In this document: one piece after another, positions 1-46,488 of the stretch
Numbering within the stretch: position 1 is the stretch's first letter
Layout of the letters: every line of letters begins with the position of its first letter
Virus record (IMG/VR): IMGVR_UViG_3300032373_000024
Span: 1 to 46,488 of that record
Origin: a virus
Lineage: Duplodnaviria; Caudoviricetes
Direction: 5' to 3' (one strand)
DNA length: 46,488 nt
The notes under the pieces: model-generated
Told to the model about the DNA's origin: nothing
What the model saw: only the letters and a program-made list of their open reading frames with translations
The model's database searches: none
Program-made: the position numbers and the translations under genes

Positions 1-127
1 TGCTGAAGTTGTTGTCGAACTAGCCACCCCAACTGCATAAAGAAATCCACCAGCAGTACACCTTAGCGATGTAGAAGTGGAGTTAAGTGCCGAACCGTTG
101 CTAAACGACACTTCAGACGCGCTTTCT
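1..127. repeat. 127-bp terminal direct repeat (identical to 46362-46488); circular-assembly overlap
   Basis: Exact match of window start and end; it lies inside an uninterrupted ORF, and 127 is a common assembler k-mer size. Confidence 0.95.
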
Positions 128-1506
128 ACCTCAATCGCCTTGTCACCAGCACCATCAAAGTTGGCATCATCAGCATTAACCTTAGACCGTCTAACAATCA
201 TTCCGCTAGAACCTGAACCTTGCGCGCTACCACCTCTAAATTCTAAATTTGAAGCTCTAGAAACATATACCGCCGATTCCTCGGAAGTTTTACAGCAGTC
301 GTCATATATACCGCTCCTAGCATTAACTCTTGAAGCTTGCTGCATCCTTAACCCTGAGCCGTTAGCGCCTGAAAAAATGGAAAGATATAAGTTAGCGTTG
401 CCATGTACCTCTGCGCCCCTATATCCAGCGTTAACAACACCGGAAAGCACACTAACAACTCCATCACTTTCTAGCATTTGCCAACCAGTGCCATGGAGGT
501 TATTCATATCAATTCGACAGTCCAGCCACGGAAACCGACAGTTAAAACCCATAAACAACGGTTTAAGTGTTTCAGTGCCGATTATTCCCGTTGGAACGGT
601 TGATGTGTCTACACCAACAAATCCAGCATCAAGTTTAACTGAGTAATATACTCTTACGTCATCGTTAAGTGTAGCGCCTGAATTTAATGTTATTGACGTT
701 GTGCTAGTTTCTGTAAATGCGTTACTTGGCGAGCCGTTTATAACTGTATAAACTTCATAGTTTCCAAGCGCATAAGCTTTGGCCAAGTTAAAAACAGTTT
801 GCCCGGCTGTTGCTACAAACGCTTCATAGTCAGCCGATGTTATTTTAAAATGGCTATAACTTCCACCGAATACACCTATTCCTCCTGTTAGCAAGTGTCC
901 AGACTCGATCTGCAACTCTATAACAAAATCATCTGAGCATGTCGCGCCCTGGTAAAAATCAACGGCTGATTGTAGTGTTGCAAAGTCTGTCGGTATTCTT
1001 ACAAGTATATTTTCTTTAAATACAGATGTTGGGGGCAGTTGAGATAGTGATCTAGTTGCATCACCTGTGACTATGTTTAATTCGTTTTCGGTTACTGTTG
1101 TAGCGTCTACTATTTCGACTCTACCACCACCGCCGTTTCCATAGGTTCTCTCTACAAAATCAACAAATTCACCAATTTTATAATGAATTATTCTAGTGGC
1201 TGATGTTATGTCTGACATTTGAGCTACTTTCAGCCTGCTTCCGTCATCAATTAAAACATTTTCAGTTCTTGTGCCACTTTCAATTATGTAATATCCAGGC
1301 AATATCCAAAACTCTAAAACCCCAGAAGTTGGATCAGTTGCAGCCCCAGGTTGTGCTATTGGAGTTACCCCCTCATCACTGTAAATTGTCGCGTAAGTGA
1401 CCCCATCGTGCGCGTTAAACACTTCGACAGATTGAGAGCCAATCACATTTATCCCCGTTGGATCTGTATCTTTTAACGCTGTGAATGAATAATTAACAAA
1501 ACCCAT
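1..1506 (-). CDS. Tail fibre/tailspike, N-terminal 502 codons (continues across the join into 46361-45891; 658 aa total)
   Basis: Missed by the ORF track. ATG at 1506 overlaps the upstream stop (TAATG). Manually translated open frame MGFVNYSFTALKDTDPTG...IPTDFATLQSAVD..., with G/S/A/N-rich beta-helix-like repeats; last gene of the tail operon. Confidence 0.85.
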   Translation of the reverse strand, partial: MGFVNYSFTALKDTDPTGINVIGSQSVEVFNAHDGVTYATIYSDEGVTPIAQPGAATDPTSGVLEFWILPGYYIIESGTRTENVLIDDGSRLKVAQMSDITSATRIIHYKIGEFVDFVERTYGNGGGGRVEIVDATTVTENELNIVTGDATRSLSQLPPTSVFKENILVRIPTDFATLQSAVDFYQGATCSDDFVIELQIESGHLLTGGIGVFGGSYSHFKITSADYEAFVATAGQTVFNLAKAYALGNYEVYTVINGSPSNAFTETSTTSITLNSGATLNDDVRVYYSVKLDAGFVGVDTSTVPTGIIGTETLKPLFMGFNCRFPWLDCRIDMNNLHGTGWQMLESDGVVSVLSGVVNAGYRGAEVHGNANLYLSIFSGANGSGLRMQQASRVNARSGIYDDCCKTSEESAVYVSRASNLEFRGGSAQGSGSSGMIVRRSKVNADDANFDGAGDKAIEVESASEVSFSNGSALNSTSTSLRCTAGGFLYAVGVASSTTTSA

Positions 1507-36727: not shown

Positions 36728-37345
36728 TTAACCCCACTGATTAGCCATTCCTTGCGCTATACCTTTAAACGTAGTTGACCTTATTTTCCATCGGTATTTT
36801 GATGGCGGCAAGTGAAAAATCCTCTCTCTGACGTTTTTTGGTAGTTCCATCATTTCATCATAGACATTGTTTTCTTCAATAAGCGGCTTGAGGTTATGCA
36901 AATGAAGACCTGTTTTCTTTTGTTCTAAGTGTCCGAATTGATACGGTTGCACATAGTTAGCTTTTGGAATACCCCCTAACCTGTGAAGAACTCCAACAGG
37001 ATTCTCAAAACAAACTCTCTCAGCTTTAGACTTGCATAACTCCCAAAACTCCATTGTCCATTTAACAGCGTCAAGTCTTTCCTGGTACCTTGGCATTCCT
37101 TCGCCATAGTGTCTATTCCCAGATACACATAACTTAGTACATTCTGGATGAGCGATAATTAAATCAAAATATCCTGATTCGGTTTTGTTTAGGTATTCGA
37201 TGATATCTCCTTGGTGGTGCCTGCCTGGTGAATCAGTTGGCAGTAAGTCGCAACTAACAGAATCATGCCCTTTATTTTTAAAAGCGTCTCTAACGACTCC
37301 GCTGTACTCGCAAGCAACTAGGACATTTTTCTTTAATACATTCAT
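36728..37345 (-). CDS. Short DNA cytosine methyltransferase-like protein
   Basis: VLVACEYSG.VRDAF, DLIIAHPECT, ENPVG, QP.QFGH...K.T.L and RS.TF.GIA..MA.QWG motifs. Confidence 0.75.
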   Translation of the reverse strand: MNVLKKNVLVACEYSGVVRDAFKNKGHDSVSCDLLPTDSPGRHHQGDIIEYLNKTESGYFDLIIAHPECTKLCVSGNRHYGEGMPRYQERLDAVKWTMEFWELCKSKAERVCFENPVGVLHRLGGIPKANYVQPYQFGHLEQKKTGLHLHNLKPLIEENNVYDEMMELPKNVRERIFHLPPSKYRWKIRSTTFKGIAQGMANQWG

Positions 37346-37398
37346 ATAAACTTACACCATCGGTTAAGCAGTTCTATCATTATTTAACCCTCTTTGGT

Positions 37399-38160
37399 TT
37401 ATCCACAAAATCCAGAATCACAGCCAAACATGTCATCTTGCAATGGTGAGTATGACCCGCCGCCATGATCGGCCCTTTCTTTTACCTCGCGTATTCCGCA
37501 AGCCCCGCCCATTCGATGCGGTCTAAACATGTATTTTGGCTTTCCACTTCTTTCTCCTACACCAAGATCATCCTCAAGCGTTATAACCTTAATAATGTCG
37601 CGCTCATCTAAATTTTGAATATCTTTAAGCGTGGCATTAATGCACGGTGAACACTCTTTTGAGCGATAAGGCAAAACATCAAAGCCAGCTTTATTTAATA
37701 AATCATCCCTTTGCCCAATTGTAAATTTTGCGAGTGGACACAATAAAGTCCTGCCGCCGTGGTTCGGAGAGTTTTTTGTTTTTTCTGGATAATTCTTCCT
37801 GTTTTCTGATTCGATGCGCATAATACCCGTGTAACAAGTCGCTTTTTTTTCGGGATCAACAATATCAAGCCAGTTAAGCGCTGGAAGTATTTTTAACTCG
37901 TAAGTACAAAAACCCATACCGTTTGCCGGAAATGCTTTTTTTCTCTTCGCTAGCGCTGACATGCCCTCGCTTGATATCTCATGAAACGTGCCGCCCGCTT
38001 TCTCTACAAAGCCTTTAACTTCTTCTACCCTTGCAGGCCATTCTTTAGATGCCCACTGAGTGTTAGAGTAAGCAACAACTAAATCATCTAAATTATTATC
38101 AATAGCCCACTGAATAAGTGCTACAGAGTCGTTTCCGCAGCTGGAGAATATTATATTCAT
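37399..38160 (-). CDS. PAPS-reductase-family (PP-loop) protein
   Basis: SCGNDS PP-loop, CT.ELKI.P, G..R.ES..R, EC.PC and C-terminal GCDSGFCG motifs. Confidence 0.8.
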   Translation of the reverse strand: MNIIFSSCGNDSVALIQWAIDNNLDDLVVAYSNTQWASKEWPARVEEVKGFVEKAGGTFHEISSEGMSALAKRKKAFPANGMGFCTYELKILPALNWLDIVDPEKKATCYTGIMRIESENRKNYPEKTKNSPNHGGRTLLCPLAKFTIGQRDDLLNKAGFDVLPYRSKECSPCINATLKDIQNLDERDIIKVITLEDDLGVGERSGKPKYMFRPHRMGGACGIREVKERADHGGGSYSPLQDDMFGCDSGFCG

Positions 38161-41933: not shown

Positions 41934-42147
41934 TATATTCTCCTTATTTAAGTTAATACGGTCACTTGACCTTTAGTTGATATACAACAAAGTTTATCTA
42001 TATTCTTATCACTCGCAGTATGCAGAACAGTTTTTAGAGTTGTCGCTCCGATATCCAACTTATGATAGTTGGCACATCAACGTCACCTGCTTTATCCACG
42101 GTCTAAATGTTGTAATGATAAGTAGAACTATCTAATCTAATTTTGGT

Positions 42148-42287
42148 AAGTGTTTATATGAAGGGGAGCTAACGGAGGTTTTAAACCCTGATAAGTGCCA
42201 CTCTAACGATGCACCCCTCTCTCCTTGCAATGAGCTTATCCGCATCTTTCGCGAGCAAGATATTAACTCCACCACATATAAACACTT
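42148..42287 (-). ncRNA. Structured ncRNA candidate, twin unit A (140 nt)
   Basis: Perfect 13-bp closing stem, UGGU/CCUU internal loop, GGAGUUAAU/GUUAGCUCC stem, multibranch interior. Confidence 0.65.
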
Positions 42288-42364: not shown

Positions 42365-42504
42365 AGTTTATATATGAAGGGGAGCTAACACCCCTTGCCA
42401 CGAGGATTTTACGTTTAACTCACTGTCTACACAAAGATTTCTCTTTTTAGGAGTAGCGCCCATTTAAATAGGCTATCTAATCAACTCCACCACATATATA
42501 AACT
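42365..42504 (-). ncRNA. Structured ncRNA candidate, twin unit B (140 nt)
   Basis: Perfect 12-bp closing stem, same internal loop and inner stem as unit A, different interior. Confidence 0.65.
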
Positions 42505-42514
42505 TTAAGTTAGT

Positions 42515-42686
42515 TGGTGCGCTTGGAAGGAGTCGAACCTTCAAAGGAGAAACTTTCGCCGTAGATAGGTAATTAACCTATCCCGCTACTTCGTTTCAGC
42601 TATTAACACTACTAAGTACTTTTCGTGCTTTTGCTAATTTCCCTAGCCAATTTGTGACCTGCGTGTACCTATTCCGCCACAAGCGC
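42515..42686 (-). ncRNA. tRNA-Leu-like RNA (172 nt) with degenerate anticodon arm and very large variable domain
   Basis: Acceptor GCGCTTG/CAAGCGC plus A-CCA; Leu-type D arm GCG-GAATAGGTACA-CGC; T arm GAAGG-TTCGACT-CCTTC. Confidence 0.8.
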
Positions 42687-42699
42687 TTTTAACTAACTT

Positions 42700-42864
42700 T
42701 GTGAAAGCCGTAAATTTCAGGCATAAAAAAAGGTCGAACTGTTCTGACCTCTTGACAATCAAGGGCGGAATAAGACATAAGTGGAAGGGATTAACCCACG
42801 AATATCAAAAAACCAGAACACTTCAACCTTAACTATCTCATTCCTAAAAAACACGACTTCCACA
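42700..42864 (-). promoter_or_regulatory. Long leader hairpin / attenuator candidate
   Basis: Outer TGTGGAAGTCGT/ACGGCTTTCACA stem; inner 17-nt arms followed by a U-tract. Confidence 0.55.
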
Positions 42865-42874
42865 CCGCAAAACT

Positions 42875-42903
42875 ATTATCTTACTTTTTTCCTTAATGGT
42901 CAA
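42875..42903 (-). promoter_or_regulatory. Sigma70-like promoter of the ncRNA region
   Basis: TTGACC-17 bp-GATAAT. Confidence 0.7.
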
Positions 42904-45890: not shown

Positions 45891-46361
45891 TTAAATACTT
45901 ACCCAGCTTTGCGAATTGAACGCCGTATATTTTATGCTTGCGCCAGCAGCAAGGCTTGCTGCTATGTTGATTGCTAGCGCGTCTAGCTTGTCATTAGATG
46001 CTGGAAACACATCACAAGCATTAGCACCGTTATTTATAACAATTACACTGTTGCCCGCCCTCGCAAAAGGTAATGTAACCGCGTCACCAATGTTTGCACA
46101 GATACTTATTTCATTAACAGCCGAGTTAAGCTGACCCCCGCCTTGGACGCTAGACACGTCTGCGGTTATTCCTGCTGTGGTTGTCTTAAGTGGTATGTTG
46201 TCTTGCGTAGCCCCGACATAAAAAAGCATTCCTTGGTTATCAAAACAGTTTAAGCAATCAACATTAGACTCTGTAACTGCTTGAGATTCACCGCTTGATC
46301 CTTCTATTACATTAGAACCCGCAATTACAATAGTAGAGCCGCCGTCGACGTCTATATTTAA
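45891..46361 (-). CDS. Tail fibre/tailspike, C-terminal part (continuation of 1-1506)
   Basis: In frame across the join (GCA|TTA); C-terminal GDAVTLP...AG....IN.GA beta module. Confidence 0.85.
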   Translation of the reverse strand, partial: LNIDVDGGSTIVIAGSNVIEGSSGESQAVTESNVDCLNCFDNQGMLFYVGATQDNIPLKTTTAGITADVSSVQGGGQLNSAVNEISICANIGDAVTLPFARAGNSVIVINNGANACDVFPASNDKLDALAINIAASLAAGASIKYTAFNSQSWVSI

Positions 46362-46488
46362 TGCTGAAGTTGTTGTCGAACTAGCCACCCCAACTGCATA
46401 AAGAAATCCACCAGCAGTACACCTTAGCGATGTAGAAGTGGAGTTAAGTGCCGAACCGTTGCTAAACGACACTTCAGACGCGCTTTCT
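46362..46488. repeat. 127-bp terminal repeat (copy of 1-127)
   Basis: Exact match. Confidence 0.95.

Follow-up and report, generated by a model that had tools for sequence, protein, structure and literature searches.

The locus described here raises the question of why a phage should carry an RNA gene that has the shape of a tRNA and no anticodon that could be used in translation. The window, by which we mean the whole 46,488 bases analysed, is a complete phage record with direct terminal repeats and with nearly all of its genes on the minus strand. Comparison of 45 window proteins with PHROGs revealed head, tail and terminase families together with RecE/RecT-like, NinB, NinG and SSB proteins, and no tyrosine integrase was found in the window. 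The tRNA-shaped element is read from the minus strand (42686 to 42515, 172 nt) and lies in a non-coding stretch of approximately 950 bases among small genes, ahead of the replication genes. The plus strand of the element was discarded, its fold being no better than that of shuffled sequences (53 of 200). ARAGORN with default settings found no ordinary tRNA gene in the whole window, and neither this program nor Rfam at the gathering score reported anything in it. Two further features of the record may be mentioned: a tail-fibre-like gene crosses the record ends (window 1-1506 plus 45891-46488), which fits a circularly permuted or terminally repeated genome, and at 36728-38160 a DNA methyltransferase gene adjoins a PAPS-reductase-like gene, possibly as a DNA modification pair.

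The element (42515-42686) consists of a leucine-type tRNA shell and an insert of 118 nt between the D arm and the T arm, and the preliminary description of a tRNA-shaped RNA without a usable anticodon is confirmed. The 5' half of the shell (42661-42686) holds one acceptor strand and a D arm of leucine type with A14, A15, G18, G19 and A20a, while the 3' half (42515-42542) holds the T arm, the other acceptor strand and the encoded A73-C-C-A. As had been stated, the acceptor stem is perfect, with seven Watson-Crick pairs (pair probability 0.92-1.0), the T arm is canonical in both its 5-bp stem and its loop (0.88-0.90), and a U is found directly 5' of the T stem. At the anticodon position there is a non-canonical hairpin of five pairs, two of them G-U, with a 5-nt loop that lacks U33 (42645-42659; probability 0.69-0.81), and with no usable anticodon the RNA is indeed non-decoding. 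The stability of the whole folded RNA is modest, since 9 of 200 shuffled sequences fold equally well.

Compared with a bacterial class II tRNA-Leu (RF00005) the element has the 7-bp acceptor, the D arm with its leucine-type loop, the T arm, A73-CCA and the LeuRS identity set, whereas it lacks the 7-nt anticodon loop with U33 and a purine at position 37 (its loop has 5 nt), has a variable region of 102 nt, and resembles a tRNA-Arg in its acceptor and T stems. Rfam RF00005 scored the window shell at 16.6 bits versus the 29 required, and on the 3' part only; the shorter shell of the sister phage G047 passes the Rfam tRNA threshold with 39.9 bits. In E. coli the leucine identity set comprises A73, A15:U48, G18G19, A20a, G18:U55, G19:C56 and U54:A58, and a tRNA-Leu devoid of the anticodon and variable arms stays chargeable, according to the available text of PMC9976931. 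Every one of these elements is present in the sequence of the shell, together with C2-G71, so that the LeuRS basis proposed earlier holds for the elements in that text, with the reservation that the host is not E. coli. From sequence, leucylation of the shell is plausible.

The region between the hairpin and the T stem is a variable domain of 102 nt (42543-42644), ending in U48 and predicted to form a three-way junction. A large domain had been reported at this place and is present, its size being 102 nt when counted from hairpin to T stem and 118 nt from D arm to T arm. The GAUAGGU/ACCUAUC hairpin is likewise there and extends from seven to eight pairs (pair probability 0.84-1.0). Of the remaining helices that had been put forward, the AGGGAAA/UUUCUCCU closure and UUAGCA/UGUUAA could form, but they compete with a better register (-42.4 kcal/mol at best, against -47.7 kcal/mol for the minimum free energy fold). 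In both sub-arms of the predicted junction, AGUA stands opposite GAA beside a G-C pair, a pattern which we take to be the bulged-G (sarcin-ricin or loop E) motif. The first sub-arm (42598-42635) would have it with GAA at 42624-42622 and AGUA at 42613-42610, and the second (42549-42597) with AGUA at 42590-42587 and GAA at 42557-42555, in an arm that also includes the 8-bp hairpin (42583-42563). Two nested motifs of this kind were found in 13 of 3000 shuffles, in a test that was defined after the motifs had been seen, and imposing their extra small pairs costs energy (-45.1 versus -47.7 kcal/mol). Folded alone, the insert was equalled in stability by 29 of 500 shuffles.

Relatives of the phage separate the shell from the insert. 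Among 46 records searched, which were the longer ones of 82 capsid relatives and many of them fragments, the region was matched in two and the shell in one (G010), which makes the shell rare among capsid relatives. A scan of viral sequences with the 3' end of the shell gave 13 loci, including G010 again and G047. These phages are well diverged from the window, the capsid protein of G010 being 53% identical and the terminase of G047 42% identical. Even so, both shells share 23 of 26 bases with the window shell in the 5' half and 28 of 29 in the 3' half, with the A-C-C-A end encoded in all three sister shells (window, G010 and G047) and every LeuRS element also kept; common to G010 and G047 is an A-A mismatch in the acceptor stem. 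The inserts are 73 nt (G010) and 64 nt (G047) long and related to each other, with no detectable kinship to the insert of the window. When the 16 predicted pairs of the two insert stems were read by hand from these two sequences only, both partners differed in 2 pairs and a single partner in 1, and no pair was broken. As judged from the sequences, the shell is constant and the cargo is exchanged, and the predicted cargo fold is kept in the one comparable pair, G010 and G047. Conservation of the insert is lacking, since this shell houses an unrelated one in G010 and G047 and the matches listed include 32 insert types, and the idea of a fixed extra domain must therefore be abandoned. A normal tRNA, the other finding that would have changed the picture, was not present at this place in the relatives. 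In L003, where the neighbour protein is 67% identical, no such array precedes the same gene.

A wider family of leucine-type shells was obtained from viral contigs with a pattern consisting of this D arm, a base other than U at position 33 and a T loop 100 to 130 nt later; acceptor closure was left out of the pattern. The scan yielded at least 119 loci, and 77 of the 119 listed close into shells of at least 150 nt. Looking at acceptor pairing alone, closure involves the far T arm in 80 of these 119 loci and only a nearer T arm in 18, while 21 do not close, compared with 4.6% closure in a control where 5' and 3' acceptor strands from different loci were cross-paired. The matches listed represent 58 distinct sequences in 32 insert clusters, a number slightly inflated by a few entries, L052 and L122 among them, which look like a shell plus another tRNA. 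In the same set all 32 of 32 clusters have the U before the T stem and 25 of 32 have A73; 2 of 58 sequences encode A-C-C-A, and a CCA end is present in 3 of 58 shells versus 35 of 126 ARAGORN tRNAs from the same loci. The bulged-G motif is mildly enriched (6 of 32 listed clusters versus 3.2), and the median z of insert stability is -0.8 among the matches listed. Also noted were Leu shells with a second T-arm-like hairpin in the insert, giving a tRNA-like unit nested in the shell (L029, L076 and L033), and tRNA shells of 83-124 nt in which the middle is likewise non-canonical and the D arm in some cases not of leucine type (L254, L265, L278, L044, L094 and L108).

No clear homologue of the window insert was found in this family, the best of 58 listed being a weak match to L098 (z 3.7). 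A scan with the D arm plus GGCUAGGG gave five loci, four of them of the L059/L098 type and none close to the window insert, and a pattern combining the bulged-G motif and the T arm gave 100 loci with one extra Leu shell (L312) and no insert homologue. Among cultured phages the insert was unmatched, and the G010 and G047 queries recovered only tRNA arms among the matches listed. Because no homologue of the insert turned up, its fold is without support from covariation. Resemblances to riboswitch, ribozyme or rRNA pieces, noticed by eye, were unconfirmed and were dropped; Rfam reported only tRNA on 20 family loci.

The shell is also part of an array. It is enclosed by a 9-bp A/U-rich inverted repeat (42699-42691 with 42515-42507; 42507-42699 overall) that 1 of 500 shuffles matched in pairing, and the A/U-rich frames around the G010 and G047 shells were equalled by none of 500 shuffles each; in the wider family only 2 of 58 members among the matches listed are framed. 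Upstream on the same strand lies a leader RNA (42725-42868) consisting of a long hairpin followed by seven U, a predicted terminator or attenuator whose fold none of 200 shuffles equalled, though a simple terminator scan did not call it. The predicted start of the array transcript is a sigma-70-like promoter at 42875-42903 with 10 of 12 consensus positions, a match that is weak by itself (5 sites versus 3.4 expected). Downstream of the tRNA shell, sequence comparison identified modules A (42365-42504) and B (42148-42287), both on the minus strand, which share a conserved, mismatched closing stem around unrelated interiors of 96 and 94 nt and so represent a second kind of shell. Module C (41960-42135, minus strand) is a further non-coding element with approximately 85-95% identity, over partial matches, in contigs of three other marine runs. 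An attC reading of modules A and B was rejected by eye, as the core-like sites are in the wrong order.

Five copies of the second shell are known from four phages (window, L001, G010 and G047), with interiors of 96, 94, 95, 72 and 78 nt, and they always adjoin a tRNA-shaped gene or a sibling module. Outside the window they are located at L001 2490-2632, L313 1260-1377 and L331 approximately 1475-1345 (minus strand), with no Rfam match. The slot ahead of the stem module in L001 (2410-2483) contains a tRNA of 77 nt that has AAU in its anticodon loop and a T loop of 8 nt; ARAGORN missed this tRNA, and Rfam accepts it with 46.5 bits. G010 has the stem module in its first frame and the tRNA shell in its second, while G047 has the opposite order within the same two frames and with the same short spacer; the two module kinds have traded places between these phages. 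A leader hairpin with a U run starts all four arrays, the leader of the window being unlike the other three in sequence. Further searches for the stem module returned L001 only in viral contigs (interiors below 80 nt fell outside the permitted gap), one Streptomyces match and then none in genomes, and only the record of the window itself in metagenomes, while its half-sites in 50 shell-bearing records gave no exact match and one with a single mismatch. One contig from another sample links 42374 with 42695, and other contigs bridge the interior of module B, the sequence between not being given; at low stringency and with short sides, these joins hint that modules vary within the population. Contigs of run X2 leave 42500-42582 uncovered, which carries no weight on the absence of a module. 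Among the sequencing runs listed with this sequence none was of RNA, a result that has no bearing on expression.

Several known RNAs come close to this arrangement. The nearest is RNA1 of phage T5 (AY543070 30501-30644), annotated as 'tRNA-like stable RNA with unknown functions' and compared here by its GenBank annotation and sequence. It has a leucine-type D loop, a U before an identical 5-bp T stem, a replaced anticodon loop and two arms between the D and T arms in a shell of approximately 134 nt, and the window element has the features of such a shell in its closed acceptor, leucine-type D loop, U48, T arm and non-canonical insert. T5 RNA1 differs in having 6 of 7 acceptor pairs, U73, no CCA and a place in a tRNA cluster, whereas the window has a perfect acceptor, A73-CCA, a longer unrelated insert, a framed module array and no true tRNA in the phage. 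Phage T4 encodes two stable, expressed RNAs in its tRNA region, species 1 and 2 (rnaC and rnaD), and the available texts of PMC3014915 and PMC9697503 give their role as unknown. An acceptor-like stem and a T arm around a folded insert make rnaC similar, but it has no leucine-type D arm, and rnaD has no T arm in its predicted fold; no sequence match of either to the window element was reported. Rfam has no family for the T5 RNA1 and T4 rnaC kind. Engineered tRNA scaffolds used for expression receive an RNA cargo at their anticodon region, to the benefit of its processing and stability; the window element differs in being natural and phage-encoded and in having its cargo at the anticodon and variable positions. 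Bacterial Y RNA, for which a Ro60 gene is expected nearby, received no Rfam match, and no Ro60-type family occurred in the general comparison of the 45 window proteins with PHROGs. Allo-tRNA, with its 8/4 or 9/3 acceptor/T-stem build (available text of PMC5389517), was ruled out by the 7/5 build of the window shell. We found no description of the Leu-shell family or of the array in a literature search that covered subscription and older papers thinly, and in which the 10,006 candidate viral RNAs of PMC10690425, partly searchable, may include the family. The kind of RNA is already known from T5 RNA1 and T4 rnaC, and what is new is the exchange of cargo within one shell lineage and the slot array with a second scaffold.

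The explanation we favour, with slightly better than even confidence, is that the shell serves as a frame for processing and stability, a natural tRNA scaffold, and that the insert is its exchangeable payload. The array would be transcribed from the promoter at 42903, reading through the leader hairpin, and the modules would be released from this early transcript at the A/U-rich frames, our guess for the enzyme being RNase III or another RNase specific for double strands. RNase P, which cuts phage regulatory RNAs according to the available text of PMC4919922, may then generate the 5' end while the 3' end is trimmed to CCA, and the host tRNA-processing enzymes would leave a stable 172-nt RNA that displays the folded cargo. 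Recombination between the conserved flanks could exchange the modules in a phage that encodes RecE/RecT-like, NinB and NinG proteins, and leucine charging might be a side property. A host protein is the probable target of the cargo, which would be its ligand or decoy, and this is the least supported step; a protein ligand is favoured over an antisense role because the insert has no significant complement in its leader or in the genome and shows motifs of the tertiary-structure type. Against the scaffold, all LeuRS elements and the exact CCA are retained in all three sister copies, perhaps beyond what a processing frame needs.

Alternatively, the shell itself could be the working part, a leucylated non-decoding mimic that sequesters LeuRS, EF-Tu or a defence protein able to sense tRNA, and the insert would be no more than bulk that is tolerated. 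The complete leucine set with C2-G71, the chargeability of the armless E. coli tRNA-Leu (in the available text of PMC9976931), the A-C-C-A of the three sister shells and the U48 of all 32 listed family clusters speak for such a mimic. We nevertheless think it unlikely: aminoacylation as the point of the RNA is weakened by the A-A mismatch in the sister acceptors and by T5 RNA1, which lacks A73-CCA; covariation is seen in the cargo stems of G010 and G047, and variable cargo is also found in the same array inside a shell that is no tRNA; the 5-nt loop is no mimic of an anticodon loop; and CCA is scarcer in the listed family shells than in ARAGORN tRNAs, a mild objection since CCA can be added later. 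The more specific roles suggested before, a decoy for anticodon nucleases or the targeting of EF-Tu or the ribosome, gained no support. A quite different function would be antisense immunity of the C4/CI type, with the insert pairing to the terminator in its own operon's leader and thereby gating the downstream replication genes. The P1/P7 C4 and P4 CI RNAs are host-processed small RNAs from an early leader region ahead of replication genes, and the window element lies behind a leader hairpin with its U run, ahead of such genes, with a fast-changing insert; it differs in its full tRNA shell, in the absence of a significant leader complement and in having no Rfam match to C4. In each of three phages the own leader was the best or tied best of four leaders, but no pairing beat shuffles (p=0.67 for the window, 0.19 and 0.11) and the longest perfect complement of the insert in the genome, 11 nt, equals the shuffle mode, these tests being blind to short loop-loop contacts of 6-7 nt. 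The P1/P7 C4 precursor is a substrate of RNase P (available text of PMC4919922), which would suit the idea, and the window has no integrase, which would not; overall we regard an antisense role as quite improbable.

The unusual 3' half invites a view of the element as a decayed or chimeric relic, in which a leucine-type 5' half was joined to the captured 3' end of a host tRNA-Arg, a former attachment site, around a neutral middle. All of the last 28 nt are identical to the 3' end of an Oleispira tRNA-Arg(ACG), and 53 loci with this end, selected by the pattern, comprised 28 tRNA-Arg and one tRNA-Leu; in addition, the contig joining 42374 to 42695 may be without the shell module, and G010 has a weak tyrosine-recombinase match approximately 8.5 kb away. 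The tRNA-Arg type of these stems is a hint of a chimeric origin and of a host among the marine gammaproteobacteria, short of a host assignment. However, an arginine origin of the 3' half is compatible with a living RNA, neither the window nor the complete G047 has an integrase, and across three diverged phages the two shell halves remain paired and almost the same in sequence around a changing insert, with framing repeats on both sides and covarying acceptors in a large family. The earlier argument against simple decay is borne out by these observations, and we consider a relic very unlikely. Least probable by far, in our estimate, is an intron-containing tRNA that is spliced to a normal product of approximately 86 nt. 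The intron mode of ARAGORN does call a tRNA-Asp(atc) interrupted by an intron of 86 nt, but after shuffling of the insert this mode still finds a tRNA in 199 of 200 shells, and it does so in 37 of 58 family members among the matches listed; the spliced anticodon stem would have G-G and A-C mismatches, no single deletion gives a canonical anticodon arm, Rfam has no intron family here, and the sister inserts differ in size and sequence. Splicing to a canonical tRNA, which had been named as a finding that would overturn the first reading, was accordingly not obtained. Two further candidates were rejected. A tmRNA is marked by G3-U70, the lack of a D stem and a tag frame; the element has G3-C70 and a D stem, and ARAGORN made no tmRNA call at the default or a lowered threshold. 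A tRNA-Ile(aat) called from the 3' 95 nt at the lowered threshold had a poor acceptor.

Returning to the scaffold with its exchangeable payload, a larger scheme can be put forward tentatively, although we think it more probably wrong than right: the arrays could constitute an RNA cassette system, where slots framed by inverted repeats in an early operon hold interchangeable RNAs on two scaffolds, the cargos bind different host defence or translation proteins, and recombination swaps both cargos and slots. Such a system, if true, would amount to an RNA-only counter-defence library with a turnover like that of anti-CRISPR gene arrays. The tRNA-like RNAs of T4 and T5 and their role have been a puzzle for decades (available texts of PMC3014915 and PMC9697503, and the T5 annotation). 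The present arrays provide a natural experiment, with one shell around two unrelated cargos in related phages, a second shell around five cargos, and swapped slots, so that shell and cargo become separable and the old T4 and T5 question testable. If the cargos are protein ligands, phages would possess a large and uncatalogued stock of natural aptamers, overlooked by tRNA finders and by Rfam, and if the shell is charged, it would be a natural aminoacylated RNA that does not decode.

Some minor observations concern the other parts of the arrays. Module C has matches over short stretches to Pseudoalteromonas phage HS5 and Vibrio phage 1.074.O, and its bases 42023-42032 are a 10-nt perfect complement of the 3' arm of the leader hairpin (42737-42746), in a module that was not significant when tested as a whole. 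In module A, bases 42417-42436 of the interior could pair over 20 nt (70% Watson-Crick and more with G-U) with 42697-42716 behind the U run of the leader. Further conserved-looking non-coding RNAs occur in the arrays at L001 2260-2390 and 2880-3080, L313 1760-1915 and L331 approximately 1170-1025 (minus strand), with no Rfam match, and the extra RNA of L313 and L331 is approximately 85% identical over 200 nt including the start of the next gene. Finally, L331 has a third module at approximately 1765-1645 (minus strand), ahead of the tRNA shell, in which a variant of the closing stem encloses an interior of approximately 95 nt.
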